Positions 6,289 to 64,000 are shown, counted from the stretch's first letter. The stretch: DNA of 64,000 nucleotides from Candidatus Limnocylindrales bacterium (GCA_035526025.1 DATLDE010000005.1:32192-96191); one strand, 5' to 3'. A program made the numbers and translations. The notes: a model not told the origin generated them from the letters alone.

Positions 6289-8545
<2,257 letters not shown>

Positions 8546-15393: not shown

Positions 15394-15414
15394 TGTGGTG
15401 AAAAGCTTTGGAGA

Positions 15415-16143: not shown

Positions 16144-16250
16144 ATATAGGAATATGCTAGTATGCCCACAACAATTATATACATAATACGAATTAAAATA
16201 AACATGCTTATTAGTTGAATTGTTACCATCAAAAATAGTACAATTAGCGT

Positions 16251-17021: not shown

Positions 17022-17038
17022 ATTATAATAAGTACTAT

Positions 17039-46383: not shown

Positions 46384-48390
46384 TTAGATTTTAAGTTTGA
46401 ATTCTTTATCTGTAAGCAGGGGGAATGTTTCTATTGTTTTTCCATTTACAATATTTGTATAAACATTGCCGCCCGTACCAGGCTGTTTCTGGATGAGAAC
46501 TGGCAAGGGCGAACCGCTCTTCAATTTAAATGGAAGTTTATACGTCAAGGTAAATGTTTTGGTTCCTTTTGGTCTTACTGTCAAAAATCCTTCAAACACT
46601 GTCTTTCCCAGATCCTCAGAGGTAACGAGCTTGACTTGTGAACCTTTACTATCTATCAGCTCACTACCTTTTGGCACATATACTCTTATCCAATCCCTAT
46701 ACTCAGCGTTGAGACAAAGTCCTCCCCGCTCCAAATTACAATCTGATGGTGGATAGGGATTTTTATATTTTATTGTAAGCGTTTTTGTTATTTCTCCATT
46801 TTTAATCGTGTAGTTATTTTCAACCTCTTCCTGCATAAAGATATTCACTTTTGCTCCTGAAAAGCTGGTTTCATTTATATGGAGATAATCACCCTCAAAA
46901 TCCAAAATTTTACCCGCAGCATTAAGGCCTTCAATTCCTTTTTGAGCTTCCTCATTAAATAAGTAGGCCATTATGTGCTTTTCATTTGTTCCCTGGATGA
47001 ATGATTGAAATAGAGGACCCCAATACTGCTTAGGTGAGGAAGTAAGAGCCTTATTCATAATCGCAGATAATAAATCTCCAAGTAGTCCCTTCCTGTCTGT
47101 TTTAATGTAATTCACTGGACGTGAAATATTATCTTCTAGTGCATAAATTACTGACGGACAATCACAACGGGGATCGCTCTTTGTGTTAAAAGTAACCCCA
47201 TTTGCAGTGATAGTATCATCAAGAATTTTAATCGTATTAACAAGAACATATGTATCAATTGCGATAATTCCATCAACCTCTACCTTCTTTGCGGATGTAT
47301 CATACATAGATTTAAATGTTTTCATGGATTCAATAAAATCAGGAGATAGATTACTGTCTCTTAAATTGAATGAATTAACCTTGGTCAAATACTTAACTAT
47401 CGGAGCAGGGGCTCTTTTTTTATTTGGGATAGAATCATCCAGAACATAAATATCTTCTGAGCGATCAAGCTTTATAATACCCTTATCGATTTTTATAATT
47501 GCATAACCTGTGAGAAACCCACCAGTCGGACGGAGTTCTTTATCATTCTGAAAGAGTACCAGATATTTCTTTTCTTCATTTTCTCCCAAAAGAGTTGGCA
47601 AAACTTTGACCAATGGTTTGGCATCACTTACGAATGTAGCCCCGTCATCTGTAAGACTTCGGATAGTTGCCAATTGGGTTTGGACTTTCTTGCCAAAAAT
47701 AAAGCTAGGATAGTGCTTGGGATTTACTTTATCAATCTCTTTCTTGATTAAATCCAGCTTTTCTGAAATCTTATCAATTTGTGGGGTTATCTTTCCGATA
47801 GTAAGAACTGCTGTCTTGATTCTGTCTTCAGTTGAGCCTGCGTTACTTTCCTTTCCTTTAAGCCCCAAGACATCAGCATATGGTTTTATGGCATCTGTTG
47901 CTATAGTTGCGCTATCAAGTCCATGCTTACCGGCATTCAACATATGATCTACATCGTTGTAATACCAGCTTGCAATTGGGACAATTTTAAGCGGAACTAA
48001 AAAATGAAAATTTCTCTGAGTTTCTGCTAGTGATTTTTTAGTTTTTTCAATTTCTACTGATGCAGCTTCTATATCCTGACTTTTAAGAGCCGCAGAAACC
48101 AATTTAGCCTGACGATAAGTCTTGAGACCTGATTTGTAAGTAAGATATGAAGGAACACCAATGAGAAGAAGTATGAGAGCAACTATAGAGAGCGCAATCG
48201 GATACCTCTTGCTCATTTTGAATTTGGCCCTTTTTTTTCTATTGGTCATAAAAGTACCATTACTTTCTGCCTTTGCAAAATCCTGCTTCTCCTTAACCTG
48301 TTTTTCGGTCCGAACAGTTCCGCCCTTGTCTGAATTTGTGGCAGTACTGGTGTTTTTCGGCGCTAATTCGATCTTGTCAAATCCACCCAT
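46384..48390 (-). CDS. DUF4012-family large extracytoplasmic protein with N-terminal membrane anchor
   Basis: 668 aa. Has a TM helix (IALSIVALILLLIGVP) and the motif KKYLVLFQNDKELRPTGGFLTGYAIIKID, which I recall as the DUF4012 signature. Confidence 0.55.
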   Translation of the reverse strand: MGGFDKIELAPKNTSTATNSDKGGTVRTEKQVKEKQDFAKAESNGTFMTNRKKRAKFKMSKRYPIALSIVALILLLIGVPSYLTYKSGLKTYRQAKLVSAALKSQDIEAASVEIEKTKKSLAETQRNFHFLVPLKIVPIASWYYNDVDHMLNAGKHGLDSATIATDAIKPYADVLGLKGKESNAGSTEDRIKTAVLTIGKITPQIDKISEKLDLIKKEIDKVNPKHYPSFIFGKKVQTQLATIRSLTDDGATFVSDAKPLVKVLPTLLGENEEKKYLVLFQNDKELRPTGGFLTGYAIIKIDKGIIKLDRSEDIYVLDDSIPNKKRAPAPIVKYLTKVNSFNLRDSNLSPDFIESMKTFKSMYDTSAKKVEVDGIIAIDTYVLVNTIKILDDTITANGVTFNTKSDPRCDCPSVIYALEDNISRPVNYIKTDRKGLLGDLLSAIMNKALTSSPKQYWGPLFQSFIQGTNEKHIMAYLFNEEAQKGIEGLNAAGKILDFEGDYLHINETSFSGAKVNIFMQEEVENNYTIKNGEITKTLTIKYKNPYPPSDCNLERGGLCLNAEYRDWIRVYVPKGSELIDSKGSQVKLVTSEDLGKTVFEGFLTVRPKGTKTFTLTYKLPFKLKSGSPLPVLIQKQPGTGGNVYTNIVNGKTIETFPLLTDKEFKLKI

Positions 48391-48463
48391 CTATATATCT
48401 TACGAAAATATATCCAAATATGTCAACTTGACAAGACTGGGGCAAATATGTTTCTAGGCTTCA

Positions 48464-49129
48464 TTACAACGCTCCGCGTCCTGAGATCATAGCCCAAGGA
48501 GTTTTGAGGATAATCCATAAGTCATATATAACCGATCGGCGCTTTGCATAATTTGCATCCATCTGTATTCTTTTATCAAAATTAATTTCACTGCGTCCCG
48601 TGACCTGCCAAAAGCCAGTAATTCCTGGTTTAACACTCAACACAACCTTCACGGCTCCACGGGTATGTGGGTATTTTTTTTGCTGTTCTTCGAGCTCATC
48701 AGGATAATAAGCACGTGGACCAACAATACTCATCTCACCATTTAGTACATTAAAAAATTGCGGCAATTCATCCAATGAAAATTTCCTGATAACTCTTCCC
48801 ACCTTAGTTACGCGTGGATCATCTTTTAACTTATAACTTCCTTTCTTATACTGGCTATATAGATCTGCATATTTTGGATCCTGTCTTAGAATAGTATGGG
48901 CATTTTTTACCATGGATCGAAATTTATACATCTTGAATTTTTTTCCATTTTTCCCAACCCTTTCAGGAGTGTCAGCAAGTATAGTTCCCTCCGACTCAGT
49001 TTTTATTGCAAGTGCAACTAGAAAAATAACTGGAGAAAAAATTAGAAGTAGTAAAATTGAAAACAATATATCAACAGATCTCTTGGCAAAATCATAAAAT
49101 GGACTTAATTGTATGTCAATTTTTGGCAT
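48464..49129 (-). CDS. small monotopic phosphoglycosyl transferase (Bac_transf; PglC/WecP/WbaP-C-terminal-like), polyprenyl-phosphate sugar-1-phosphate transferase
   Basis: 221 aa. Re-entrant N-terminal helix plus KMYKFRSM...DELPQFFNVLNGEMSIVGPRA, which are the catalytic motifs of bacterial sugar transferases. Confidence 0.85.
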   Translation of the reverse strand: MPKIDIQLSPFYDFAKRSVDILFSILLLLIFSPVIFLVALAIKTESEGTILADTPERVGKNGKKFKMYKFRSMVKNAHTILRQDPKYADLYSQYKKGSYKLKDDPRVTKVGRVIRKFSLDELPQFFNVLNGEMSIVGPRAYYPDELEEQQKKYPHTRGAVKVVLSVKPGITGFWQVTGRSEINFDKRIQMDANYAKRRSVIYDLWIILKTPWAMISGRGAL

Positions 49130-49130
49130 T

Positions 49131-50216
49131 TTATATTAAATGCTCGTGGTCTGTTCCTTTAAGATTTTCAACGAATTTTTTAATTTTTGGTATAGATCTT
49201 TTTGGACACATTAGCAATACATCATCAGTGTTTATAATTACCATTTCTGACAAATCTATACCTATGCAAAGCTTCTTCTCATAATTAAACATCAATACGT
49301 CTTGTGTATCCCTTAACTCAATATTTCCACGGGTTACATTTTCCTCTTTATGATTCTCAAGAGCTTCTTTAAGAGCATCCCATGCTCCTATATCACTCCA
49401 ACCGATATCTGCAGAAATTACAAATCCTGATTTCGGATTAATTTTTTCCAGAATAGCATGATCAAAAGAAATTTTTTCAATCGTGGGATAAACTCTATTT
49501 AAAACATCCTCATATTTTTCAGTCCCAAAAGCTTGACTAATTTCATTAAGTTGCTTAAATAGATCGGGTGAAAACTGTTCAAAAAGTTTCCATAAAAATT
49601 TTGGGGTGGTCGCAAAATAACCTAGATTCCACGCGTGCTGATTATCTTTGGAAAATTTTTCAGCATCTTCAATAGGTGGCGCGTATTTAAATCCTTCAAA
49701 TTTATGAATTGGGAGACCATCTATTTCTTTCAACTCACTACCAAATTTAATATATCCGACATTTTGATTTCCGTAACGAGGTTTTTGCCCAATAAAAATT
49801 ATTTTTTCAGGATCTTCTATTATTAATTTTTCAGCTGCCCTAAGCATTTTGCGAAAAAGCCCCTCTTCTTTAACAAGATGATCGCTACCCCAAAGCAGGA
49901 CAAGAGGTTCATCAGGACTAGATTTAACCAACTGTGCAATAACCAAACCAACTGCTGGTCCGACATCACGCATTTCCGGCTCAACAATTATATTTTCTTT
50001 TGGGAGCAAAGGAAGCTGTTCAAGAGTAGTGTCGTAATATTTTTTACCTGTTGAAATGAAAATATCTTTCCAATCAAAATCGGGGAATAATTTGCGAACT
50101 GCAATCTGCAGCATTGTTTGTTCATCCACAATTTTTCCGAATTGTTTGGGAGTATTTTTTCTCGAAAGTGGCCAAAGTCTTGTACCCACACCTCCTGCAA
50201 AAACAACAATTTTCAT
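49131..50216 (-). CDS. manC: mannose-1-phosphate guanylyltransferase (GDP-mannose pyrophosphorylase)
   Basis: MKIVVFAGGVGTRLWPLSRKNTPKQF is the G-loop of the ManC/GMPP family. 361 aa, with no C-terminal PMI domain. Confidence 0.75.
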   Translation of the reverse strand: MKIVVFAGGVGTRLWPLSRKNTPKQFGKIVDEQTMLQIAVRKLFPDFDWKDIFISTGKKYYDTTLEQLPLLPKENIIVEPEMRDVGPAVGLVIAQLVKSSPDEPLVLLWGSDHLVKEEGLFRKMLRAAEKLIIEDPEKIIFIGQKPRYGNQNVGYIKFGSELKEIDGLPIHKFEGFKYAPPIEDAEKFSKDNQHAWNLGYFATTPKFLWKLFEQFSPDLFKQLNEISQAFGTEKYEDVLNRVYPTIEKISFDHAILEKINPKSGFVISADIGWSDIGAWDALKEALENHKEENVTRGNIELRDTQDVLMFNYEKKLCIGIDLSEMVIINTDDVLLMCPKRSIPKIKKFVENLKGTDHEHLI

Positions 50217-50237
50217 AATTCAATATCCATTATAATA

Positions 50238-51341
50238 TCAAATCAATTTATTCACAACTGACAAGAAATTTTTTTTAAAACTTTCAAAATTAAATCTTTC
50301 TGAGTTAATTATGCATTCATTAGGTCTGAACTTTATTTTTTCAAATCTCACGATCGATTCCATCAAAGACTCCTTATTCTGCTCATCAAAAAACAATCCC
50401 GTACTGCCGTCAATTACTATTTCGCGGGCTCCTCCTTTTTTAAAAGCAATTACTGGCTTGCCATGCATTCCTGCCTCTACCATAACAAGCCCAAAATCTT
50501 CTACTCCAGGAAATATCAACGCTTTACAATTTTTGTAATAATCAATAAGGTCAGCATCATTTATTGCTCCGATAAATTCTACACTAGAACCCGCTATTTT
50601 TTCAAGATCATTTTTCCAGCTCCCTTCTCCTACAATTTTTAAATTAAATTTAAGTTCATTAGCAGCTTCAATGACGAGATCAATTCGCTTATACTTTGTG
50701 AATTTTGAAAGCCTTGAAACCACAAGAAAATAATTTTCCTGATTCCTGATTCTTACCTGCCTGCCTGATTGGAGGGATTCTTGATTCTTTTTTAGAATTG
50801 CCGGTGGATAAACTAACTGCGATTCTCTTCCATAATATTTCTTAATTCTCCTCTGCACCTCTTTGGATATTCCGATATATGCATCAGGCCTTGAAGAGGC
50901 TATGATATCCCATTTTTGAAGCCTTGAAATAATCGGTTTTGACAAAATTTTTAGAAAATCAGTCTGAAAGTAATCATCATACCCACTCCATAAATATCTT
51001 GTAGGCGTGAGACAATAGCAAATGTGGATTGTCCCTGGTTTGGTAATTATTCCTTTTGCTGATTCTGAAGTAACTGAAATGACTAGATCATATTTATCAA
51101 AAACAAGGCTTTCAAACACCAATGGCATCAAAGGCGAAACAAATTCATGGTTTGAGGATGCGAATGGTATTTTCTGGAGAAAGGAAGTTCTAACATCAAA
51201 TACTTTAGCCCATTTTGCTGTATTTTTTTCATAGACCGAAGTATAAAGAGGTGCATCTGGAAATAACTTATGAAAAGCAAGAAGCACTCGCTCAGCACCA
51301 CCCCATTTATTAACTCTATCGTAAACTAATGCTACTTTCAT
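50238..51341 (-). CDS. family 4 glycosyltransferase (GT-B)
   Basis: MKVALVYDRVNKWGGAERV... is a GT4 N-terminal domain, and the C-terminal domain has GVEDFGLVMVEAGMHGKPVIA (the EX7E region). The ORF stays open to 51398, but the GT domain starts at 51341. Confidence 0.75.
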   Translation of the reverse strand: MKVALVYDRVNKWGGAERVLLAFHKLFPDAPLYTSVYEKNTAKWAKVFDVRTSFLQKIPFASSNHEFVSPLMPLVFESLVFDKYDLVISVTSESAKGIITKPGTIHICYCLTPTRYLWSGYDDYFQTDFLKILSKPIISRLQKWDIIASSRPDAYIGISKEVQRRIKKYYGRESQLVYPPAILKKNQESLQSGRQVRIRNQENYFLVVSRLSKFTKYKRIDLVIEAANELKFNLKIVGEGSWKNDLEKIAGSSVEFIGAINDADLIDYYKNCKALIFPGVEDFGLVMVEAGMHGKPVIAFKKGGAREIVIDGSTGLFFDEQNKESLMESIVRFEKIKFRPNECIINSERFNFESFKKNFLSVVNKLI

Positions 51342-52428
51342 ATACAGCCAGTGTCTCTTTTGCCATTTTTCTCCAGGAAAATTCTTTTGAGCGCTCAAGT
51401 CCTTTCTTTATATTTTTATCAAGTATATTTTGCTCAAGACTAAAAACATCGTTTATTTTGTTCTTTATATCCTCAATAGAATATGGATCAAAATATATTG
51501 CAGCATCTAGACAAACTTCTCGCAGCGAAGGAATGTCAGACGCAATAACCTGACATGCTGATGCCATAGCCTCAAGCACCGGTAACCCAAAACCTTCCAT
51601 GAGAGACGGAGATATAAGTGCAATTGCGTTTTGATAATAACCAGCGAGTTCTTTGTCAGTGACATTATTCCGGACTACAACTCCTGAGTAATTTTCTTTT
51701 AAGATTTTCTCATTTAATTTTTTATAAAAAAAATCATCCTTTCCAACCAGCACCAATTGTATGTTTTCATGGTCTTCCTTTCTGAATAAAGAAAAGGCTT
51801 TTATTAATCTGTCAAGATTTTTGTGTGGATATGCATTCCCAACATATAAAAAATATTTTGTTTTATCAACAATTTGTACTTTATCTTTTTTTTGTATTTT
51901 TTCATCAAATCCTTCATAAGTGACAATAATTTTTTCTTGCTTAACTCCCAGGGTTTCTATCAAGTCGTCTTTCACGGCATTCAGCGGTACTATGATTTTT
52001 TGGGCTTTATTAACTGCATTCTTAACCACATAATCATATCCAAGTTTCTTGAGTTGATATAAATACAAAGGAAGCTTTGAGGCTTTACCTGTTGGGAAAT
52101 GATTTATGATCAAATCGTGAATCGTGATGACAAATGGATTTTTATATCCAACAGGAATAGAGAAATATGGAAAATGAACCAAATCCAAATTCTCTTTATT
52201 CAAAATTTGAGGAAGTTTTAACTGCTCATCAAGCGTATGCCAACGAATGTCCACCCGGACAACTTTGAACTTTGAACTTTGAACTTTGAACTTGTCAGCA
52301 TCTGCAGACCTCATAAACAAAACATAATCATTTGTTTTGTCAATTTCGGCTAAATTGTAAACCAAATTCCTGATATACCTCCCAACTCCTGTCTCGCTCC
52401 AAAGCCGCGCGTCAATACCAATTTTCAT
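51316..52428 (-). CDS. family 4 glycosyltransferase (GT-B) containing an in-frame heptanucleotide repeat tract
   Basis: MKIGIDARLWSETGVGRYIRNL... is a GT4 N-terminus, and the C-terminal has PSLMEGFGLPVLEAMA. Four perfect AACTTTG units encode KFKVQSSKFKV near the N-terminus. Confidence 0.8.
   Translation of the reverse strand: MKIGIDARLWSETGVGRYIRNLVYNLAEIDKTNDYVLFMRSADADKFKVQSSKFKVVRVDIRWHTLDEQLKLPQILNKENLDLVHFPYFSIPVGYKNPFVITIHDLIINHFPTGKASKLPLYLYQLKKLGYDYVVKNAVNKAQKIIVPLNAVKDDLIETLGVKQEKIIVTYEGFDEKIQKKDKVQIVDKTKYFLYVGNAYPHKNLDRLIKAFSLFRKEDHENIQLVLVGKDDFFYKKLNEKILKENYSGVVVRNNVTDKELAGYYQNAIALISPSLMEGFGLPVLEAMASACQVIASDIPSLREVCLDAAIYFDPYSIEDIKNKINDVFSLEQNILDKNIKKGLERSKEFSWRKMAKETLAVYESSISLR
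52261..52294. repeat. heptanucleotide microsatellite (AACTTTG)x4 plus one imperfect unit, inside GT4 coding sequence
   Basis: aactttg at 52261-67, 52268-74, 52275-81 and 52282-88, then aacttg. Confidence 0.85.
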
Positions 52429-52449
52429 AAAATAAGTATAACATAGTGG

Positions 52450-53364: not shown

Positions 53365-53369
53365 AATTA

Positions 53370-54611: not shown

Positions 54612-54645
54612 AAACTAATTATAGCAGAGGGAATATCAAATAATC

Positions 54646-56115: not shown

Positions 56116-56129
56116 CTAAATAGTATAGT

Positions 56130-59100
56130 TCATTTGATAAGCTTTAAATTTCCGTCTTTATCAAATTCAAATACTCTACCACTTGGATTATTTCCTATTT
56201 CTTTTTTTGCCTGTTCAATAGATGAAGAAGATCTAGTCACCAAATTATTCTCTTTATAAGTGAACCAGGTTGCATCCTGAACTCCTACCGGAAAAATCCA
56301 AGCATTTTTATAGCGTTGCGGAACATTGACGAAGTAAAATATTGGTTTCTTAATTACTCCTAGCTTCATATCTTCGTATCCATCATTCATGTATTGGAGG
56401 AAGTTGTTGGTAATAAGTCCGGCTATTCTCCAATCTCTATTCTCTTTCTGCAACTGGTTATACTGGAAAATAAGAAAAAAAGCAGGTATTGCCCAAATCA
56501 CTATGACCGCAAATATCTTATTAAATGATTTAAGGTATGCATAAATTTTTTGAAAAACAAAAACCACAAATAATATCGCACCAAATGACGCTAAGTATGT
56601 ATATCTTGGTGCAATATTTCCAAGTCCTAAAAATGGTAAAAGAGGAATTATAAAAAATAGTAAACTAATTACAATAATATCTTTATCATGCTTTTTAATA
56701 TGTCTTATATTTTTCTTAAAAATATAAACTGCTAGATAAGAAAAAACAGCTATTACTACAAAAGCAAATACCATATTTGTTCTTAGACTTGATCTCATAA
56801 ACTCATTTACTTGAAGAAATGGAGAGCCAACAAAAATATAGCCAAGCGAACTAATTGCATTACCAAAAAAATTAAAAGGCAATTTTAATAGATTATATTT
56901 ATAATCACCTGCTGACCAAAAACTATTCGAAATTAGCTTCATGAAAAAGTATAAAATCAATGAGGCAACATAAAAAATATAGTGCTTATTTACTAATTGT
57001 TTATTTACTAATTTAGAGGAGACAATTCCATAACTTACAACTAGAATCGGAGTAATCACGCCATATTCATGAAATAGTGGGGCTACAAAACTAAATAGTA
57101 CTGAAATAATTAAGTATAGATTTTTCTTACCTTCTTTCCATTTCAGATATAACCAAAACGATAGCATCGTAAAAAAAGTTGCAAATAAATGCCCGACAGC
57201 TGAAATCCAAAATATAGTTTCAGCATGTGAGGCAAGCAAGAGAAATATAAACGCAGTAACAAATGATAGTAATTTATCTTTAAGAATTTTTTGCGTTATC
57301 AAGAATATCAAAATGGTGATCGCAACATGCAAGCTCAGGGAAACAAGATGATAAACAACCGGACTTATTCCACCAAATTGAGAATTATACAATATATAAA
57401 AGTATGTTTTCATTCCTGGTCTGTAGAAGAATTCACTTGAATTGAAAAAGAAATTAGACAAAATATTAAATTTAGACGAACAATTCGCTACGCCTCCTTG
57501 AGTGAGTTGCTTACAATCTGAAACCCATTTTATCCATGTGAAATCATCCGCTACAAAGAAATGGTTTAACATCTCCCAGAAAAAAATAAGCGCTGTAACG
57601 CCAAAATAAATGAAAATTGCAGGGACTGAAAATAACATATCTTTAATTTCATGTATCAGATCAATAGATTTCTTTCTATACTGAACCAGTATTCCAATAG
57701 TTAGCCCTACTAGAATCCAAAGTGTATAGGAAATTTTTGAAGCCTCAAATACATCAATTAGCGAGGCGTTGAGCCATAAACCGAAAATGCCAGCGGTTAC
57801 ACCAATCACAAAACTGCGAGTGAGCTTATCCTCAATCAAAGGCATAATTTTAGCAAAATAAATTGCATAAATTAGAAATATTAAACTAAATAATCCAAAA
57901 CCCATCAACCCTGTTTCGCCAAGAAATCTAAAGTAATTTCCATCAGTTGCCAATGTGATGGACGAGTATCCGCTTCCAAAGAATATATTTCTCTTGAATG
58001 CTTTAATTGCATTAGGCCATTCAGCCTGAAGTCGTGTAGTAATTGATGCATCTAGGGCACTTGCTTTTTGGATAATAAAATCGCCTTGTAAATTCTGGAC
58101 ATCTATTGATTTGGCAGTCCCCTTTTGCGTATTAATGATAACATTCTTCGTATTACCAATTTTCTTAGCATTAGTTGATAGAGATCCCGCATACAAATCA
58201 GGACCTGAAGGCTGGACATTGTTAATCACAAATTTTCCATTAACACTATCTCCATATCCAATTACTTTTCCTGTCCGTGCATCAACAATCCTATTAACAG
58301 ATGAGAATGTGGCCGAGTAACGTGCATAAAGCCCAGTGAATGTCCGCAGCATAACGAAACTTATAATGACAACTGGGATTATCCATTTTTTTTGCTTTTG
58401 TAAAATTAACATGAATATTACTGCCAGAAGATACATCAAAAAGGATGTTCGCGATTGTGTCATTAAAAGAGTTATGAATCCCAGTACACTGATGATCAAT
58501 AATCCAAAACGCCCAAACCAATTTTTATAACCAAAAATCAAGCTACCAATCAAAGGAATTAGCATCACAAGATAAGCTCCAAAATCATAATGTCCTGCAA
58601 AAGTTGATTGTAGCCTGCCCGCTGCATCAAGAACTAGTGGAATTCCTTTAGCGAATTCCTCATTCATAGTAGAAAATGCAGGAAATCTTTGGGGGATAAA
58701 GCGCTGACCAAACCCATACAAGACGACAGTCAGAAACACGCCCACGATTATAGGTATAAAAAATTTAATACTTTTCTTGTCTTTAATCGCTGCATATGCA
58801 ATAAAAAACAACGACATATACTCAATGTGCCTTGCATAAAAAAGTAATGCGTTCCTGGAGTATATTCTCGGGTCACCAGTAATGGTAGGGTCATTCAGAT
58901 GGGGGAAAATATATATCAAACCCAACAAAGTAGATATAAAACCAGTAAGCCAAAATGCAAAAATGGCAATCGTTAAAGGAGTTTTGAAGGATTCTTTTTT
59001 TCGAATAACCTGGATTAGATAAATTATTACAAAAAGCAATACAATAAAATCTTCAGCTCTTACATAGACATTTACATGGGTTAACCCAATTAATGGTATT

Positions 59101-59183
59101 TTAGGATACAAAGGAATAAATGCCACTAAAAATAACGTGAAAACCAGAAAAATATTATTTTTTAATAAAGATAATAATTTCAT
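56130..59183 (-). CDS. giant polytopic membrane protein: N-terminal Wzy_C (O-antigen ligase/polymerase/O-OTase-like) domain fused to a second C-terminal multi-TM domain
   Basis: N-terminal half: more than 10 TM helices with MTQSRTSFLMYLLAVIF (Wzy_C core), a predicted periplasmic loop of about 130 aa, then RNIFFGSGYSSITLATDGNYFRFLGETGLMGF. C-terminal half: about 12 further TM helices (FVADDFTWI..., HEYGVITP...) of unknown family, with a 90-aa soluble C-terminal tail. Start taken at ATG 59183 (MKLLSLLK). The track ORF extends to 59246, overlapping the upstream GT2. Confidence 0.65.
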   Translation of the reverse strand: MKLLSLLKNNIFLVFTLFLVAFIPLYPKIPLIGLTHVNVYVRAEDFIVLLFVIIYLIQVIRKKESFKTPLTIAIFAFWLTGFISTLLGLIYIFPHLNDPTITGDPRIYSRNALLFYARHIEYMSLFFIAYAAIKDKKSIKFFIPIIVGVFLTVVLYGFGQRFIPQRFPAFSTMNEEFAKGIPLVLDAAGRLQSTFAGHYDFGAYLVMLIPLIGSLIFGYKNWFGRFGLLIISVLGFITLLMTQSRTSFLMYLLAVIFMLILQKQKKWIIPVVIISFVMLRTFTGLYARYSATFSSVNRIVDARTGKVIGYGDSVNGKFVINNVQPSGPDLYAGSLSTNAKKIGNTKNVIINTQKGTAKSIDVQNLQGDFIIQKASALDASITTRLQAEWPNAIKAFKRNIFFGSGYSSITLATDGNYFRFLGETGLMGFGLFSLIFLIYAIYFAKIMPLIEDKLTRSFVIGVTAGIFGLWLNASLIDVFEASKISYTLWILVGLTIGILVQYRKKSIDLIHEIKDMLFSVPAIFIYFGVTALIFFWEMLNHFFVADDFTWIKWVSDCKQLTQGGVANCSSKFNILSNFFFNSSEFFYRPGMKTYFYILYNSQFGGISPVVYHLVSLSLHVAITILIFLITQKILKDKLLSFVTAFIFLLLASHAETIFWISAVGHLFATFFTMLSFWLYLKWKEGKKNLYLIISVLFSFVAPLFHEYGVITPILVVSYGIVSSKLVNKQLVNKHYIFYVASLILYFFMKLISNSFWSAGDYKYNLLKLPFNFFGNAISSLGYIFVGSPFLQVNEFMRSSLRTNMVFAFVVIAVFSYLAVYIFKKNIRHIKKHDKDIIVISLLFFIIPLLPFLGLGNIAPRYTYLASFGAILFVVFVFQKIYAYLKSFNKIFAVIVIWAIPAFFLIFQYNQLQKENRDWRIAGLITNNFLQYMNDGYEDMKLGVIKKPIFYFVNVPQRYKNAWIFPVGVQDATWFTYKENNLVTRSSSSIEQAKKEIGNNPSGRVFEFDKDGNLKLIK

Positions 59184-59184
59184 A

Positions 59185-60063
59185 TTAAAATTGAATTGCC
59201 TGTCTAAATGTTGTCGTAAGATACTTATTTCTTGTAATATAACCAATTGTGATTGCTACATATGCCTTAACGTATAACATTGCCTTCACAAGGATATATT
59301 CCATATTACTTCTGTGCTTTTTATAAAAATAAAGAAGCCCTTTGTAGATATTTGCTACTGCGAAACTTCGGCTTGAACTTCCCTGATCCTGGTGGATTAC
59401 TGAAACATCAGGATAGAAAAATGTTCTAAATCCAGCTTTTTTTGCACGATAACAAAGTTCCATATCTTCTATATACATAAATATTTTTTCATCAAAACCC
59501 GATAATTTATCAAAGACATCTTTTCTCATCATGAACATCGCACCTTTTACCCAATCTACTTCGGTAACTTTATTAAAACTTTTATCAATCAATCCAAACT
59601 TTTGCATACCTAATAGAAGTAAAAAAGTATTGAACAATGTATAAAATTTTCCCGCTGATGATTGCTTCTCCCCATTAACATTAGTTAGCTGTCCCCCGAG
59701 AATTGATACATCTATATTTTTATCCATGTACTCTACCATTCTAACTATTCCTTTATCCATAACAGTTGTATCATTATTGAGAAACAACAGATATTTTCCT
59801 TTTGCTTCTTTTGCTCCGATATTACAACCTTTTGCAAATCCTTCATTTTTCTTATTATTTATAACTTTTATATTTTTAATACTATCTTTTGCTATTTTAA
59901 TGTTTATAAAATCTAATGAGTCATCTTCAGATCCATTTTCAACAATTATCAGCTCAAATTTGTTTTTTTCAAAATCGTCATTATATAACTTATATAGTGA
60001 GTCAATACAATTAATCGTCAGATGAGATTTTTTATAATTAATACTTATTATTGAAAGCATCAT
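59185..60063 (-). CDS. family 2 glycosyltransferase
   Basis: MMLSIISINYKKSHLTINCIDSL...LIIVENGSEDDS...FLNNDT. Confidence 0.75.
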   Translation of the reverse strand: MMLSIISINYKKSHLTINCIDSLYKLYNDDFEKNKFELIIVENGSEDDSLDFINIKIAKDSIKNIKVINNKKNEGFAKGCNIGAKEAKGKYLLFLNNDTTVMDKGIVRMVEYMDKNIDVSILGGQLTNVNGEKQSSAGKFYTLFNTFLLLLGMQKFGLIDKSFNKVTEVDWVKGAMFMMRKDVFDKLSGFDEKIFMYIEDMELCYRAKKAGFRTFFYPDVSVIHQDQGSSSRSFAVANIYKGLLYFYKKHRSNMEYILVKAMLYVKAYVAITIGYITRNKYLTTTFRQAIQF

Positions 60064-60067
60064 AAAA

Positions 60068-60661
60068 CTATCGGAACCATGCAGCGCGACCAAGCTTATA
60101 ATTCAATTCTTTTAACACTCTTTCTTTTATTATTTTAGCTGGAACTCCACCAACCATTTCAAATTCTTTAACGTCTTTTGTCACCACTGACCCTGCTGCA
60201 ATAACCGCACCTTTTCCGATATTCACACCTGGAAGTATGATGGATCGTGGTCCGATAAAGACATAGTCTCCAATACGCACAGGTGCATTTATCCCTCCAA
60301 AATGCGGATCTTCAATATCATGTTGGGAATTATATATCATCACATCCGACGCAATATCGACATGATTTCCAATACTTAGCTTGTCTCTTCCATCCAGAAC
60401 TATTCCTTCTCCGATAATTGTTCCATTCCCAATCGTTATATTCCTTGGGTTATAAAAACGTGCGCCCATGTGAATTGCGGACCCTGACCCAATTTGAACA
60501 CCTGCCAATCTATAAAAAAACCTCCTGATAATATGTGAAGGGAAATGCCCCACTATATGAAGTAAAAGAACTATCAGTTCCCACATGGTAGTATTTGCTC
60601 TATTTACGCTTTTATCCAACACCTCGTGCGTTGAAAGTTCTTTTCCGGTTTTGTCTATCAT
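60068..60661 (-). CDS. left-handed beta-helix (hexapeptide-repeat) sugar O-acetyltransferase with N-terminal TM segment
   Basis: IGEGIVLDGRDKLSIGNHVDIASDVMI...IGPRSIILPGVNIGKGAVIAAGSVVTKDV contains LbH hexapeptide repeats. Confidence 0.75.
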   Translation of the reverse strand: MIDKTGKELSTHEVLDKSVNRANTTMWELIVLLLHIVGHFPSHIIRRFFYRLAGVQIGSGSAIHMGARFYNPRNITIGNGTIIGEGIVLDGRDKLSIGNHVDIASDVMIYNSQHDIEDPHFGGINAPVRIGDYVFIGPRSIILPGVNIGKGAVIAAGSVVTKDVKEFEMVGGVPAKIIKERVLKELNYKLGRAAWFR

Positions 60662-61773
60662 AATTTGCCTCCTATCTCCTCAAGTACATTCAGGGTTTCT
60701 TTTGCTGTTTTTTCCCAACTGAATTTAGCCACTTGTTTTTTCCCTTTTTCGATTAATTCTTTTCTTAGCTTCTCATCATCAATTAGCTTAGTCATTTTAT
60801 CAGTAATGTCATCAACGTTTTCAGGATCTATGTAAAGACAGGCATCTCCTCCAGCTTCTGGAAGACTACTTACATTACTTGCAACAACTGGACACTCATT
60901 TTTCATTGCTTCAAGAACAGGTAGACCAAATCCTTCATAAAGACTTGGCAGAACCATGCAAACTGCGTTCTTGTAGAGAATTGGTAACTCATCATTATCA
61001 ACGTTATGTAAAAATCTTACTCTCTCTTCAATCCCTAGCTCTAAAGGTTTTTTTAATATTTCCTCATATAACCATCCTTTTTTTCCTACAATAACGAGAT
61101 CAAGATTTTTTTCAGACAATTTTGAAAAAGCCTCAATAAGTTTTCCAATATTCTTTCTCGGCTGAATTGTGCCTACAAAAAGTATATATTTACCTTCCAA
61201 TTTATATTTTGTTTTAAGTTGCGTCATACCATATACATGTGGCTTCAGTGACGTAAATTTTCTGATACCAGGATATGTTACGCTTACTCTCTCAGGAGCC
61301 ACTCCATACTCTTTAATTATATCATTTTTACTTGAGTTGCTTATAGTTATGATTTTTTTTGCTTTCTTGACAGAATAAGATGTCCAATTTTTAAGCTGAA
61401 TCAAATCATGCTTATTAAATAATTCCGGAAAATATAGAAATGATAGATCCATTACTGAAATAATTGATGGAACCGGAGAAAAGCGGGGACCATAATGCGA
61501 AGGGGAAAAAAACACTTCTGGTCTTGGACGATGTAAGTACAGATCTAGAGGAAGCCTCCCTTGTGTCCACATCCTTCCAGGCTTTATAACTCTATATTTC
61601 CAGTTATTATTTTCTTTAGGAAAATCAGGAAGTGGCCTGTTTTTTAAGTAAATTACAAATTCTATCTCTTGAACTACTAATTTTGAAAAATGCATCAATA
61701 ACTCATAGGCGTACGCACCAATTCCCACACGATTTGTTATATTTGCTTCATTACCATCAATTCCTATAATCAT
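60658..61773 (-). CDS. family 4 glycosyltransferase (GT-B)
   Basis: MIIGIDGNEANITNRVGIGAYAYELL is a GT4 N-terminus, and the C-terminal has PSLYEGFGLPVLEAM. Confidence 0.8.
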   Translation of the reverse strand: MIIGIDGNEANITNRVGIGAYAYELLMHFSKLVVQEIEFVIYLKNRPLPDFPKENNNWKYRVIKPGRMWTQGRLPLDLYLHRPRPEVFFSPSHYGPRFSPVPSIISVMDLSFLYFPELFNKHDLIQLKNWTSYSVKKAKKIITISNSSKNDIIKEYGVAPERVSVTYPGIRKFTSLKPHVYGMTQLKTKYKLEGKYILFVGTIQPRKNIGKLIEAFSKLSEKNLDLVIVGKKGWLYEEILKKPLELGIEERVRFLHNVDNDELPILYKNAVCMVLPSLYEGFGLPVLEAMKNECPVVASNVSSLPEAGGDACLYIDPENVDDITDKMTKLIDDEKLRKELIEKGKKQVAKFSWEKTAKETLNVLEEIGGKL

Positions 61774-61819
61774 ATTATTAAGAGATTAGAAACTAAGTAC
61801 TTCTCAATATTATATCAAT

Positions 61820-62353
61820 CTAAATTCCGGGATATACGACTTGCAACTTTTTACTATCAATATGCAGAAACTCTTCCGCATCCGCTTTTGTTGAATTAGA
61901 TATGCAAAGAATTTGATCGCACTCAAGCCTCACCCATTTCAATCTTCTTTTCTGAGTATCGACAATCATCTTATCTGTTTCTTCCGGACGCTTATACACA
62001 ATAAGATCATATAGTATTGTAATTTTTCTTGCTTTTTTTGTCGGGGGCTGCGTCCAATCAGAAGATAAAAAAACATCTACCTCTCCAATCAGATCCTCAA
62101 TCGGCATAATATGAAGTTTATTCCAAAGTAAATCAAGAAGTTTTGGAGGAAATCTAAATTTCCTTATTTTGTATTTAGCCCTGTTATTCCTAATTTTTAA
62201 TTCTAGATTATTAATTCTTCTTAGGCTTGAATAAAACAATATGTATTCATTATCGGTATCGATATTAAGCATATTCTCTACGAGATTTTTGACATAATTT
62301 GCAACCCCTGTGTTGCTATAAGCCAACTGAGATATGTCAATACCTATTTTCAT
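61820..62353 (-). CDS. GT4 glycosyltransferase N-terminal domain only (truncated paralog / possible gene remnant)
   Basis: MKIGIDISQLAYSNTGVANYVKNL...LQVVYPGI matches only a Glyco_trans_4-type N-terminal domain. It stops where the donor-binding C-terminal domain would begin, and no C-terminal domain ORF follows. Confidence 0.5.
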   Translation of the reverse strand: MKIGIDISQLAYSNTGVANYVKNLVENMLNIDTDNEYILFYSSLRRINNLELKIRNNRAKYKIRKFRFPPKLLDLLWNKLHIMPIEDLIGEVDVFLSSDWTQPPTKKARKITILYDLIVYKRPEETDKMIVDTQKRRLKWVRLECDQILCISNSTKADAEEFLHIDSKKLQVVYPGI

Positions 62354-62391
62354 ATATATATTCTATCAGAAAAATACCAAGGGGTAGAATT

Positions 62392-62982
62392 TTATTTTTT
62401 TACGCAGTCAAAGAAAATATCTCCACTGAATACGTATTGATACCAAATACTTAGAATTAAAAAACCCAAAACAATCAACACGCCCTTACCCTTTTTATCA
62501 CGCATAAAGCCCCAAATACCATATATTGAAAATACTAGATAAGGAAAGCTAATCAATATTAATCTCGCATCATAACTTATTGAACCTCCAAAGATCTCGA
62601 CCAATGGAAGCATTAACAATAACGCTAACATCATAAGCTTATATTTAAATTTGGATCTAACTAAATACCAAAAACCACAAAATATTCCAAAATACCCAAC
62701 TATTGAAAAGAACATAACCCCAAACCGTATATCCCAAAAATGAAAGTAGTTTGAAAAAATACTATTTACAAAAAATACAGGCTTGTTATGAAACAGCCTT
62801 ACGAGTTCTGGTGAAAAACCAATATCATTATGTACTGCATCTTCAAGCCTAAGACCCATCTGAGGATATGAGAAGTGAAACTTATCTGAAAAATCTCTGC
62901 AAGCATTCCACATTCGAAAAGTATTTAATTCGTAAAGAATGAAAATTGTTAATAAAATTTTTTTAATCATTATAAATTCCAT
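62392..62982 (-). CDS. hypothetical integral membrane protein
   Basis: 196 aa with 4-5 TM helices. No family recognised. Confidence 0.45.
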   Translation of the reverse strand: MEFIMIKKILLTIFILYELNTFRMWNACRDFSDKFHFSYPQMGLRLEDAVHNDIGFSPELVRLFHNKPVFFVNSIFSNYFHFWDIRFGVMFFSIVGYFGIFCGFWYLVRSKFKYKLMMLALLLMLPLVEIFGGSISYDARLILISFPYLVFSIYGIWGFMRDKKGKGVLIVLGFLILSIWYQYVFSGDIFFDCVKK

Positions 62983-64000
62983 ATCTCAGCATAAATATCG
63001 TTATTATTGCCCGGCAAATATGCTCTATCTATTATTTGTTCGTTGTTAACATTCCCATAATTTGGCCTTATATAGAGCACTTTCTTCTTTTCCCATTCCT
63101 TAGGCTTAACCCATGAAGACTCTACAACCAATAACTCTACTGAATCCATATAAAAATTTACATAATGTTCTGTGAAGTTTAAATTTTTGTCAATCACTAA
63201 ATAGTCATACTTTCCTTTATGTTTAATTATTTTTTCAACAATTTGCTTATTACCAGCTCCCCAATCTAAAGCATTGACCTTTGGGTAATGGTTGTAGTAA
63301 AAATGCGCATAGATTAAAAAGTCATACATAGCAATGATGACTAAGAATACTAGAAATATTTTTTTAAACTTTTTTAGATTTATATAAAAAATAACAATTC
63401 CAAGGGATATTAAAATTGTAATAGGCAAAATCAATAAAAGTGACCTCAGACTATGCGGGCTAGGTCGTGCAAGCGCCGCGGGAAGTGGAGCAAGGGAAAT
63501 AAGCCCTATAACTACATATTTATATGCATTTCTTTTCTGCTTAATCAGCCATGATGTTCCCAAAATCAAGAATGGCAACTGCCATCTATAAAGCAACCCA
63601 AACCCTGGTATTTGGTGACGACCATTACCGTCTCCATTACTAAATAAATAGTCAAAAGAGAAAAAAGAAATATAATTTTTAACATAAACCATAGGATACA
63701 CAAATAATTTCTGGGTTGTAGTATCAGCCTTATATTCTGAAAATGCAGATGTTTGAACAAATCTTTCAGATCCTTTGGATGTTAGCGAGAATTGAATTAT
63801 AGGAATAATCAAAATTATAAATATCACTCCGCATCGTATAATTTTTTTTCTGAGCTTTGGTAGCTTTATAAAAAATGCAGTCAATAAAATTAACCAGCTC
63901 AGGGGAGAGATGATTCTAAATGTATGATATGTATATGCGCTTAATGCAAAAAGAATAAATCCACCCACAAAGTACTTTGCTTTATTATTTCCCCAAAACA
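62970..64000 (-). CDS. integral membrane protein, partial (5' end beyond window), possibly GT-C-like
   Basis: The frame stays open through position 64000 with no stop after the GTG at 63968. It is multi-TM, with a soluble C-terminal tail of about 90 aa. Confidence 0.5.
   Translation of the reverse strand, partial: FWGNNKAKYFVGGFILFALSAYTYHTFRIISPLSWLILLTAFFIKLPKLRKKIIRCGVIFIILIIPIIQFSLTSKGSERFVQTSAFSEYKADTTTQKLFVYPMVYVKNYISFFSFDYLFSNGDGNGRHQIPGFGLLYRWQLPFLILGTSWLIKQKRNAYKYVVIGLISLAPLPAALARPSPHSLRSLLLILPITILISLGIVIFYINLKKFKKIFLVFLVIIAMYDFLIYAHFYYNHYPKVNALDWGAGNKQIVEKIIKHKGKYDYLVIDKNLNFTEHYVNFYMDSVELLVVESSWVKPKEWEKKKVLYIRPNYGNVNNEQIIDRAYLPGNNNDIYAEIWNL

Follow-up and report, generated by a model that had tools for sequence, protein, structure and literature searches.

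A class-wide core-genome operon for lipid-linked glycoconjugate assembly in Microgenomates encodes a Wzy_C/GT-C fusion

What does a seventeen-kilobase run of glycosyltransferase (GT) genes in a Levybacteria-like member of the Microgenomates (CPR) assemble, and to what is the product attached? In the 64,000-nucleotide stretch analysed here (the window), all ORFs of the locus lie on the minus strand, with gaps that are short or overlapping. A preliminary description had read the locus as a Pgl-like glycosylation locus in which priming by a phosphoglycosyl transferase (PGT) is followed by extension by at least six soluble GTs, acetylation, nucleotide-sugar supply and transfer by two different membrane enzymes on the outer face. 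Every family call behind that gene list was reproduced in our Pfam scans, including four GT4 and two GT2 enzymes and both membrane transferases (Wzy_C and GT39-like), and with them the logic of the pathway. The features are as follows.

46384..48390, minus strand: DUF4012 protein, 668 aa (Pfam E 5.6e-21), final gene of the conserved core
48464..49129, minus strand: small monotopic PGT, 221 aa (Bac_transf E 6e-62)
49131..50216, minus strand: ManC-like mannose-1-phosphate guanylyltransferase (NTP_transferase and ManC_GMP_beta-helix)
50238..51398, minus strand: GT4a (Glycos_transf_1 E 6e-29)
51316..52428, minus strand: GT4b (Glycos_transf_1 E 6e-32 and Glyco_transf_4)
52450..53364, minus strand: GT2a, soluble (Pfam)
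53370..54611, minus strand: GT4c (Pfam)
54646..56115, minus strand: GT-C of the GT39/PMT_2 (ArnT-like) family, 489 aa (PMT_2/PMT)
56130..59246, minus strand: Wzy_C fusion ORF, 1038 aa (Wzy_C)
57669..59183, minus strand: N-terminal half of the fusion, residues 1-505, WaaL/Wzy_C-like 12-TM module
56130..57668, minus strand: C-terminal half of the fusion, residues 506-1017, GT-C fold module
59185..60093, minus strand: GT2b, soluble (Pfam)
60068..60661, minus strand: hexapeptide (LbH) O-acetyltransferase, WcaF-like (Hexapep)
60658..61773, minus strand: GT4d (Glycos_transf_1 E 2e-39)
61820..62353, minus strand: GT4N, stand-alone GT4 N-terminal domain, 177 aa (Glyco_transf_4 only)
62392..62982, minus strand: 196-aa membrane protein, 5 TM segments (TM prediction)
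62970..64000, minus strand: C-terminal part of a polytopic membrane protein, 342+ aa, frame open to the window end
12193..13437, minus strand: Wzx/MOP flippase, island I (Polysacc_synt_3 E 1e-60; NF007773 E 2e-46)

The locus is a tightly packed core-genome operon. Across related genomes, the 13-gene order GT4N-GT4-LbH-GT2-fusion-GT-C-GT4-GT2-GT4-GT4-ManC-PGT-DUF4012 proved collinear in 80 of 80 species-level genomes of Levy-, Gottesman-, Roizman- and Woesebacteria, each core gene being found in 82-100% of the loci with enough flank. This order is still fixed where fusion identity falls as low as 34%, and it spans at least four candidate phyla of Microgenomates, a class of ultra-small bacteria. 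The GC content of the locus is genome-like, with no compositional island signature, and its place beside recO is constant. Because genome-like GC, the fixed recO neighbour and class-wide synteny all mark a core operon, the label of a glycosylation "island" is misleading.

Upstream of the core, the edge of the locus is variable and holds many further GT-C-like proteins, sugar-nucleotide modifying enzymes and often an ArnC/GtrB-like synthase, the usual feeder enzyme of GT-C steps. In 25 of 45 relatives a GT2 with two TM segments lies directly upstream, matching ArnC (E 1e-37) and GtrB (E 4e-28) over its full length; no such synthase was found in the window. The 196-aa protein belongs to this edge, having no homologue in 86 related loci and no match in Pfam or NCBIfam. 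Its neighbour, the partial ORF, is part of the edge too and probably codes for another GT39-like GT-C, since it shares about 28% identity with GT-C proteins of PMT_2 type in a relative (25-28% to two PMT/PMT_2-positive proteins of locus L001).

The PGT, the most conserved protein of the operon (median identity 68%), is probably the initiating enzyme, with a polyprenyl-PP-sugar as its predicted product. In size it agrees with its earlier description as "PglC-like"; in family it does not, its best NCBIfam matches being the catalytic domains of the hexose-1-P transferases EPS_sugtrans, WbaP and WcaJ, all under the full-length cutoffs. ManC, which aligns to positions 3-349 of 467 of TIGR01479 (E 4e-60) and has no PMI domain, is the putative GDP-mannose supplier. 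At the other end of the core, the gene once taken for a "GT4 fragment" is not debris: GT4N opens the core as a separate 177-192-aa gene in 56 of 61 relatives and aligns over its whole length to GT4d residues 1-170 (23% identity). GT4d and the acetyltransferase are found in 61/61 relatives, the latter with the WcaF family NF007797 as its best NCBIfam match (E 4e-33, under cutoff).

The remaining soluble GTs vary more in type and occurrence. GT4c is TIGR03087-like (E 9e-49, under cutoff), and its slot is filled by two divergent types across species, with bimodal identity (25-34% vs 45-62%). GT2a occurs in 40 of the 49 relatives with enough flank, and in the PDB it best matches TarS, chondroitin synthase and SpsA, neither DPMS nor GtrB being matched there, and it has no predicted TM segment; GT2b (56/61 relatives) is TarS-like in its best PDB matches and likewise has no DPMS or GtrB match in that comparison. 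Two starts probably need moving, that of GT2b to an ATG about 10 codons in and that of GT4a, whose orthologues are 356-362 aa long, to a point about 24 codons past the listed TTG. The DUF4012 protein begins with a disordered cytoplasmic stretch and crosses the membrane once (TM segment 65-83); its large extracytoplasmic portion comprises a helical bundle, an alpha/beta domain and a beta-sandwich.

The 1038-aa fusion ORF carries Wzy_C at 35.5 bits (Pfam cutoff 31.7). Translation probably begins at the ATG at 59183; the resulting 1017 aa equal in length a database protein of 100% identity. The earlier designation "Wzy_C fusion" is upheld for the N-terminal half, which has 12 TM segments and a beta-rich outer-face insert of roughly 85 residues (residues 293-377); the C-terminal half must now be described as a glycosyltransferase module of GT-C fold that ends in a small alpha/beta domain. 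This half matches no Pfam family, and on the whole fusion no Pfam family besides Wzy_C was found, nor a TPR or any other protein-binding domain. Set beside GT39/GT83 GT-C enzymes, the C-terminal half is a remote homologue (hhalign 92%) of the same fold, and its closest GT-C folds include Pmt4, Pmt2, STT3, AglB and PglB as well as the Dol-P-Man-dependent mannosyltransferases ALG12, Pmt, ALG3, ALG9 and PimE. In the model, 12 TM segments precede the first GT-C TM, so that both active sites would face outward. The neighbouring GT39-like GT-C, whose family is named GT39 or ArnT by different sources, has about 10 TM segments, passes the Pfam thresholds (PMT_2 48.5 bits vs cutoff 26.1; PMT 43 bits) and has its active site on the outer face. 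It is present in 49/49 relatives in two sequence types (identity 34-45% vs 62-67%), and at least 90% of 73 species keep the motif A32-D33-W34-H35..R38-Q39 past its TM1. Both GT-C modules retain acidic residues of catalytic type in their first outer loop, as in PMT and ArnT enzymes; neither the MIR domain of eukaryotic PMTs nor the lipid A context of ArnT is found here.

Together these parts lead us to posit a four-step pathway. The small PGT, as its fold and family indicate, would place a sugar-1-phosphate on the lipid, and four GT4 and two GT2 enzymes would extend it in the cytoplasm to about a heptasaccharide, with GDP-mannose coming from ManC and the O-acetyl group from the WcaF-like enzyme. 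The unit would then be flipped by a flippase encoded elsewhere. As had been reported, no Wzx lies inside the locus and one lies in island I, the sole candidate flippase in the window, which could act in trans; in none of 86 loci was a Wzx found less than 10 kb from the fusion. Since a PGT starts the chain, the donor should be diphosphate-linked, as are the substrates of Wzy_C enzymes (WaaL, Wzy, PglL), and the WaaL/Wzy_C half would most likely use this donor to polymerise the unit or ligate it to an envelope acceptor. Finally, the fused GT-C half and the GT39-like GT-C may add sugars from polyprenyl-monophosphate donors or move the chain to its final acceptor, much as GT-C enzymes do in Gram-positive cell-wall polysaccharide pathways. 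Wzy_C cannot settle that acceptor, because it is common to polymerases, ligases and O-oligosaccharyltransferases, and neither sequence nor fold separates these activities within the family. Nor does the fold match to the WaaL O-antigen ligase (PDB 7TPG/7TPJ) discriminate between them. Identity to WaaL is only 15%, with no sequence-level PDB match, the outer-loop insert and the GT-C half are additional, and the host is monoderm-like, with no known lipid A-core acceptor.

We envisage a single conserved oligosaccharide, O-acetylated and containing mannose, that is built on a polyprenyl-diphosphate carrier and finished on the outer face of the membrane, and we give about an even chance to its being a conserved cell-envelope glycopolymer, our leading interpretation; a cell-wall glycopolymer is at least as likely as the "Pgl-like protein glycosylation" first proposed. 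One precedent is the rhamnose-rich cell-wall polysaccharide of lactococci and streptococci, where extracytoplasmic GT-C enzymes supply an envelope glycopolymer with sugars or whole chains taken from lipid carriers: the lactococcal PSP pathway pairs a polymerase (WpsI) with a GT-C transferase (WpsJ), separate Csd side-chain systems (GT-A/GT-C pairs) share the flippase CflA from another locus, and the loci combine conserved and variable parts (PMC9574508). These pathways differ in starting on a monophosphate carrier via GacI/GacJ-type enzymes and in having their own Wzx, a Wzz-like WpsH in the locus and a rhamnan backbone with ABC transporter and LCP ligase, whereas here a PGT acts and polymerase-like and GT-C functions share one polypeptide. 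Counting against a cell-envelope glycopolymer are the lack of Wzz, LCP or exporter partners in the core of 86 loci and among the recurrent families of 25 sampled upstream regions, the near-invariant gene content, the failure of sequence and fold to tell polymerase, ligase and O-oligosaccharyltransferase apart, and a window that has no ArnC/GtrB-like synthase.

General protein O-glycosylation, the monoderm form of the preliminary proposal, in which the Wzy_C half would be a PglL/WsaB-type O-oligosaccharyltransferase that moves the lipid-linked chain en bloc to surface proteins such as S-layer proteins and type IV pilins, and the GT-C modules would behave as protein O-mannosyltransferases or side-chain transferases, is possible, though we think it rather unlikely. 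Near-invariant class-wide gene content is unusual for Wzy-type polysaccharide loci and typical of general protein-glycosylation systems and LPS-core-like structures, and an invariant seven-enzyme glycan made without Wzz or exporter suits a defined oligosaccharide more than a polymer. The Wzy_C domain seen on our fusion is shared by PilO, PglL and two predicted S-layer O-oligosaccharyltransferases, WsaB and WsfB (PMC2943079), and the folds closest to the GT-C half include Pmt4, Pmt2, STT3, AglB and PglB. Proteins of monoderms and Pseudomonas pilins are indeed glycosylated by GT-C enzymes (PMC12041528; bioRxiv 10.1101/2020.04.19.049825). Pilins are abundant in CPR bacteria, and almost all Microgenomates have a sortase (PMC6744442). 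However, no candidate glycoprotein was found in the window, the locus or the upstream regions of 45 relatives, where the large proteins span the membrane several times and contain 8-14% Ser+Thr, unlike secreted Ser/Thr-rich ones; no protein-binding domain was found on the fusion; and neither an STT3/PglB Pfam match nor a WWD motif was detected. The Campylobacter (PglC/PglB) and Neisseria (PglB/PglL) pgl systems share the small PGT, serial GTs, a roughly seven-sugar oligosaccharide, outer-face transfer by GT-C (PglB) or Wzy_C (PglL) and conservation across species, but our locus lacks a PglK/PglF flippase and diNAcBac synthesis genes. The monoderm slg clusters of Geobacillus stearothermophilus and Paenibacillus alvei resemble the locus in combining a WbaP-type PGT (WsaP/WsfP), GTs and a Wzy_C transferase (WsaB/WsfB) in one tight operon, and P. 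alvei adds a branch sugar via a separate lipid carrier (PMC2943079); they are strain-specific, low in GC, carry a Wzm/Wzt ABC transporter and act on or lie near a known S-layer protein, none of which holds here, and their transferase has no GT-C fusion.

It is improbable that the locus makes a conventional Wzx/Wzy-dependent exopolysaccharide or capsule, with the fusion as repeat-unit polymerase and the polymer released or loosely attached. As in O-antigen, colanic acid and Gram-positive CPS/EPS pathways, the parts list is standard (a Bac_transf PGT, serial GT4/GT2 enzymes, a WcaF-like acetyltransferase, a sugar-nucleotide supplier and a Wzy_C enzyme working outside the membrane on a diphosphate-linked unit), the best NCBIfam matches are EPS, colanic-acid and hormogonium-polysaccharide enzymes, and DUF4012 occurs beside the priming PGT in a Bifidobacterium CPS/EPS locus (PMC5412050). 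Against this stand the missing nearby Wzx, the absence of an island signature and the conserved GT-C modules, fused and separate, that are foreign to standard EPS loci. Such loci are normally variable within species; here gene order is fixed across the class. Nor, as the preliminary description would have expected of a capsule locus, do Wzz or export genes recur in orthologous loci: no Wzz/PCP, tyrosine kinase, LCP ligase or exporter recurs in the core of 86 loci, and none of these, nor an ABC exporter, is among the recurrent Pfam families of 25 sampled upstream regions, so dedicated partners for polymerisation or wall attachment are lacking. We regard as very unlikely a membrane-anchored lipoglycan, in which the WaaL-like half would ligate the oligosaccharide to an LPS-core-like or lipomannan-like glycolipid anchor for elongation with mannose from polyprenyl-phosphate-mannose by the GT-C modules: ManC, the Dol-P-Man-dependent folds and the several GT-C enzymes in series, as in mycobacterial LM/LAM assembly, would suit it, but lipid-anchor synthesis genes are absent from the locus, the fusion has no match to NCBIfam RfaL, and the window yielded no polyprenyl-phosphate-mannose synthase, its island I GT2s being weakly DPMS-similar.

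The system was first put forward as probably undescribed, and the searchable literature yielded no account of either the operon or the fusion; the same pathway logic is already known in monoderms, from S-layer slg clusters and lactococcal cell-wall polysaccharide. The pathway is one of core-genome, lipid-linked glycoconjugate assembly and not a conventional variable capsule island, and collinearity in 80/80 genomes, together with genome-like GC and an unchanging place beside recO, points to a glycoconjugate with a structural, housekeeping role in these bacteria.

The region from 46384 to 64000 is an unbroken series of minus-strand ORFs, spaced by 0-75 bp or overlapping briefly, with the same GC content (0.31-0.37) as the remainder of the window. 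Apart from a second glycan gene group, island I, that remainder carries housekeeping genes, among them the dcw/mur cluster and those for ATP synthase, RecO and aminoacyl-tRNA synthetases. Pfam and NCBIfam scans recovered every family in the parts list of a preliminary description of this locus, and the families and folds bear out the lipid-linked, outer-face logic proposed there.

Features of the main locus, with the source of each assignment in brackets
46384-48390, minus strand: DUF4012 protein (Pfam)
Main locus, minus strand: ManC-type guanylyltransferase without a PMI domain (Pfam/NCBIfam)
Main locus, minus strand: four full-length GT4 (GT4a-GT4d) and two GT2 (GT2a, GT2b) glycosyltransferases (Pfam/NCBIfam)
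Main locus, minus strand: hexapeptide acetyltransferase, WcaF-like (LbH; Pfam/NCBIfam)
54646-56115, minus strand: PMT_2/PMT (GT39-like) GT-C enzyme, 489 aa (Pfam)
Main locus, minus strand: Wzy_C-matching protein of ~1020 aa, the fusion (Pfam)
61820-62353, minus strand: GT4 N-terminal domain alone, 177 aa (GT4N; Pfam)
Upstream edge of the main locus, minus strand: family-less protein, 196 aa, five TM segments
Upstream edge of the main locus, minus strand: ORF still open at the window end

The priming phosphoglycosyl transferase (PGT), previously called PglC-like, is indeed a small Bac_transf protein (208.7 bits; 221 aa with a single N-terminal hydrophobic segment; small, single-domain and monotopic), but orthology to PglC is not established, its best NCBIfam matches being WbaP, WcaJ and EPS transferases. 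The GT-C enzyme falls within GT39/PMT_2 (PMT_2 48.5 bits, cutoff 26.1; PMT 43 bits, cutoff 22.7), and D33 in its first loop is kept in at least 90% of 73 species. Scans for promoters and terminators at the operon ends gave counts no higher than in shuffled sequence.

The combination of an AlphaFold2 model with two modules, a profile match and conserved residues leads us to predict that the fusion is a WaaL/Wzy-like module joined to a GT-C glycosyltransferase. The fusion, which the preliminary description called unusual, is no peculiarity of one genome: a pattern scan that took a single genome for each species finds it encoded in at least 587 species, and more than 120 full-length homologues (~1005-1130 aa, 39-70% identity) stand among the matches listed out of 1189, under the source name “O-antigen ligase family protein” and from Patescibacteria and Levybacteria. 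The model, built from 26 sequences (pLDDT 79, pTM 0.78), displays two membrane modules. The N-terminal half reaches the Wzy_C superfamily profile (PF04932, 35.5 bits, cutoff 31.7), which is matched in 25 of 26 family members (best E 4e-10), and has a WaaL-type fold that is polytopic, with 12 TM segments and a large outer loop; several of its Arg, Asp and Glu residues are invariant. No Pfam family covers the C-terminal half; its profile aligns with that of the GT39-like enzyme over the PMT_2 core (hhalign probability 92%, E 6.7e-7), against 0.3% for the N-terminal half as control. The C-terminal half has the polytopic fold of GT-C enzymes, its first outer loop bearing a conserved acidic motif. 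This motif, D546-D547, lies six residues past the first TM helix of the module, where GT-C enzymes carry their catalytic acid, and is kept in at least 95% of sequences (78 species), as are E655, E706 and D760. Such conservation supports an active enzyme. With 12 TM helices ahead of the GT-C module, both active sites would lie on the outer face, as judged from the model and from what is known of the topology of WaaL and of GT-C enzymes.

The fusion is not recognizable as a WaaL/RfaL orthologue, as it has no NCBIfam match, unlike the Wzy_C protein of island I (10236-17785, a separate glycan gene group), which matches RfaL weakly. Nor does it carry the sequence marks of the N-oligosaccharyltransferases PglB/STT3, having neither an STT3 family match nor a WWD motif, and it matched no PDB sequence as a single-sequence or profile query. 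Our literature searches returned no description of a WaaL-like/GT-C fusion architecture, and nothing relevant on O-antigen ligases, protein glycosylation or a Wzy_C/PMT_2 fusion in CPR, Patescibacteria or Microgenomates.

The fusion sits within an operon whose gene order is conserved in relatives, the comparison anticipated by the preliminary description. We assigned the ORFs of 80 species-representative loci to window proteins by BLASTP; these carry the names Levybacteria, Gottesmanbacteria, Roizmanbacteria and Woesebacteria, together with many further records under plainly generic labels. The core block is collinear in 80 of 80 loci. Its order, GT4N-GT4-LbH-GT2-fusion-GT-C-GT4-GT2-GT4-GT4-ManC-PGT-DUF4012, is identical around fusion homologues of 70%, 56%, 47%, 43% and 41% identity, and recO usually lies beyond DUF4012. 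Where the flank suffices, GT4d and LbH are present in 61/61 loci, GT2b in 56/61, GT-C and GT4c in 49/49, GT4a in 48/49, GT4b and ManC in 47/49, PGT in 46/49 and GT2a in 40/49; the full set of 12 genes from GT4N to PGT occurs in 30 of the 40 loci with adequate flank on both sides. The NCBI label of the window-identical contig, “Candidatus Limnocylindrales bacterium”, and the title “uncultured Gammaproteobacteria” of many related records look like taxonomy artefacts, since every relative with an informative name belongs to the Levybacteria or to another group of Microgenomates.

Median identity is highest for cytoplasmic enzymes (PGT 68%, LbH 62%) and lowest for those of the outer face (fusion 39%, GT-C 39%). 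Identity to relatives is bimodal for the GT39-like GT-C (34-45% versus 62-67%) and for GT4c (25-34% versus 45-62%), independently of overall relatedness: the closest relative, whose fusion is 70% identical, has a GT-C of only 42%, against 62-67% in distant ones. Two divergent types each of the GT-C (54646-56115) and of GT4c (53370-54611) occupy the same operon slots, with the relatives' loci L011, L024, L032, L076 and L084 set apart from the others. This pattern of sequence identities suggests that two slots may be exchanged as cassettes within an otherwise fixed pathway. The supposed GT4 fragment does consist of a GT4 N-domain only, but far from being debris of one genome it is a conserved gene in its own right, of 177-192 aa in 56 of 61 relatives. 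Over its whole length it aligns with the acceptor-side (N-terminal) domain of the full GT4 next to it (23% identity), and it ends exactly at the inter-domain linker. GT4N is, as judged from its sequence, probably an ancient half-enzyme that has been maintained.

Against this conserved core, the upstream ORFs differ among relatives, and the locus thus comprises a 13-gene core, from GT4N to DUF4012, and a variable 5′ edge given to outer-face decoration. Across 45 relatives these ORFs cluster in three groups: a ~670-aa family, other GT-C-like proteins and a ~310-aa GT2. The ~670-aa family (30 of 45 loci) has ~10 TM segments, the first followed by a long loop, and a weak, sub-threshold GT-C_AftD match; its members (such as 337-2532 in locus L004 and 3719-5701 in L006) are without Pfam assignment and have their last TM segment at the extreme C-terminus, and a related ~1070-aa form occurs at 8 loci. 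The ~310-aa GT2, with two C-terminal TM segments, immediately precedes GT4N in 25 of the 45 relatives (6580-7524 in locus L003, for example), and its full-length alignments to ArnC (E 1e-37) and GtrB (E 4e-28) identify it as a putative polyprenyl-phosphate sugar synthase, the normal feeder of GT-C enzymes. The 64-kb window contains no such ArnC/GtrB-like synthase; that position holds the family-less membrane protein of 196 aa and the GT39-like ORF cut off by the window end. Read as one frameshifted gene, the 196-aa ORF and the 342-aa partial ORF show no similarity to the closest relative's 540-aa protein, so that the two upstream edges are not orthologous. GT2a and GT2b were rejected as synthases, having no TM segment and matching TarS, SpsA and chondroitin synthase rather than GtrB/DPMS. 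No GtrA-type flippase, as would be looked for in a three-component GT-A/flippase/GT-C system of extracytoplasmic glycosylation, was seen.

A conventional capsule or EPS locus, a reading that the preliminary description named as refuting its own, should bring Wzy, Wzz and export genes in its orthologues, and the related loci did not bear this out. In 86 loci, the 10 kb to either side of the fusion contain no homologue of the window's Wzx or of the island I Wzy_C protein. Among 116 upstream ORFs of 25 relatives, families seen at least twice include GT2 (20), NAD-dependent sugar epimerases/dehydratases (16), methyltransferases (4) and DegT aminotransferases (3); MOP flippases, ABC transporters, Wzz and LCP are not among them. 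A complete Wzx/Wzy-dependent locus, with Wzx and Wzz/PCP encoded beside the polymerase, is therefore not what we find. Pfam scans also agree with the earlier remark that the main locus has no Wzx and island I has one, and the flippase for the main locus is encoded elsewhere. In island I, Wzx stands beside a second Wzy_C protein and six glycosyltransferases, with no PGT. An island without a priming transferase and a main locus without a flippase are complementary on paper. The catalytic domain of one island I GT2 (17039-17785) aligns to an archaeal Dol-P-Man synthase (E 4e-7); the similarity of the island's GT2s to DPMS is weak.

Three further window proteins deserve record. A DUF2079 polytopic membrane protein (1180-2625), of another predicted GT-C-like family, has a DnaE fragment on one side and the ATP synthase operon on the other, and a copy 54% identical to it stands upstream of the operon in the relative's locus L086. 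A 357-aa protein (37932-39005) within the cell-division/cell-wall gene cluster has an unusual architecture of three separate OmpR-type winged-helix (Trans_reg_C) matches and no receiver domain. Adjoining island I, a small single-pass membrane protein (9534-10235) carries two Glucodextran_B/Ig-like domains and no Ser/Thr-rich tract.

The DUF4012 protein, 60-86% identical in relatives, comprises a cytoplasmic head that is disordered, a single TM segment and an extensive outer portion (helical bundle, alpha/beta domain and beta-sandwich); its model shows no PCP-like match. With a near-invariant extracytoplasmic motif, QNDKELRPTGGF (281-292), conserved Cys pairs (C409/C411 and C551/C559) and more invariant polar residues, its sequence looks more like that of an enzyme than of a scaffold. 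Its conserved pairing with PGT is the only lead to its role. A DUF4012 gene lies between a priming PGT and wzz in the CPS/EPS cluster of Bifidobacterium longum 105-A (PMC5412050), and Meheust et al. count DUF4012 among the families common to CPR and Gram-positive bacteria (PMC6744442).

The families and folds point directly to a start on a diphosphate carrier by PGT, to six cytoplasmic glycosyltransferases with an acetyltransferase and GDP-mannose supply, and to at least three predicted outer-face modules using lipid-linked donors. We hypothesize that the flipped unit, about seven sugars long, becomes the donor for the Wzy_C half, and that the GT-C modules would add sugars from monophosphate carriers or carry the chain to an acceptor. 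The product that we rank first, at about even confidence, is a conserved envelope glycopolymer, on account of the core-genome nature of the operon, the link of DUF4012 to EPS loci and a precedent in lactococci. There, the polymerase WpsI and the GT-C transferase WpsJ act jointly on the pellicle polysaccharide, and the Csd side-chain systems, separate from WpsI/WpsJ, have one flippase in common, CflA, with its gene at a different locus (PMC9574508). The lactococcal pathway is a close functional precedent, and monoderm systems of the same logic are already known.

Protein O-glycosylation, which takes in the Pgl-like, en bloc system of the preliminary description, comes second, as a possibility that we regard as real but clearly less probable. 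An invariant, defined glycan without a chain-length regulator would suit it well, Wzy_C O-oligosaccharyltransferases are known in monoderm S-layer systems (PMC2943079), and GT-C enzymes glycosylate streptococcal proteins and Pseudomonas pilins (PMC12041528; bioRxiv 10.1101/2020.04.19.049825). However, we found neither an acceptor nor an oligosaccharyltransferase-specific feature: no candidate glycoprotein lies near the locus, the large upstream proteins of relatives being polytopic membrane proteins, and two small window proteins lack Ser/Thr-rich tracts. As in PglL, PilO and WsaB the Wzy_C domain is present, but the fusion has no TPR or other accessory Pfam family besides it, and no acceptor protein is linked. 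A bolder form, which we consider doubtful, is a general O-glycosylation of S-layer proteins, pilins or sortase substrates across the Microgenomates, in which the fusion would be a new bifunctional transferase type with cooperating modules. The GT-C half might, for example, draw on a monophosphate-linked sugar to prime the acceptor or to branch it, and the WaaL-like half might transfer a diphosphate-linked oligosaccharide en bloc, with DUF4012 as a further outer-face component of the machinery. A conventional secreted EPS, which the parts list would fit, is improbable in view of the conservation and the missing partners, and a lipoglycan is less probable still, the WaaL and mannosyltransferase similarities that fit it finding no further support.

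Compared with these alternatives, the envelope glycopolymer remains our preferred reading. Two things appear to be new: that the WaaL-like/GT-C fusion forms a conserved family of enzymes, and that the 13-gene operon is recognized as a fixed, class-wide feature of Microgenomates. The fusion physically joins the two main types of outer-face lipid-donor glycosyltransferases, and as a natural “Rosetta stone” it predicts functional coupling where the enzymes are separate, as with WpsI and WpsJ; it could also become a glycoengineering tool. The locus likewise sets DUF4012, a family also found in Gram-positive EPS loci, in a context that is defined and open to test. Because CPR bacteria are uncultivated, of very small size and probably attached to other cells, surface chemistry is central to their biology, and to our knowledge this chemistry is almost undescribed. 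The fixed order of 13 genes in 80 species-level genomes, together with a fusion encoded in so many species, makes it probable that the operon produces an envelope glycoconjugate that defines the class, one that would offer a handle for labelling, enrichment and studies of host interaction.
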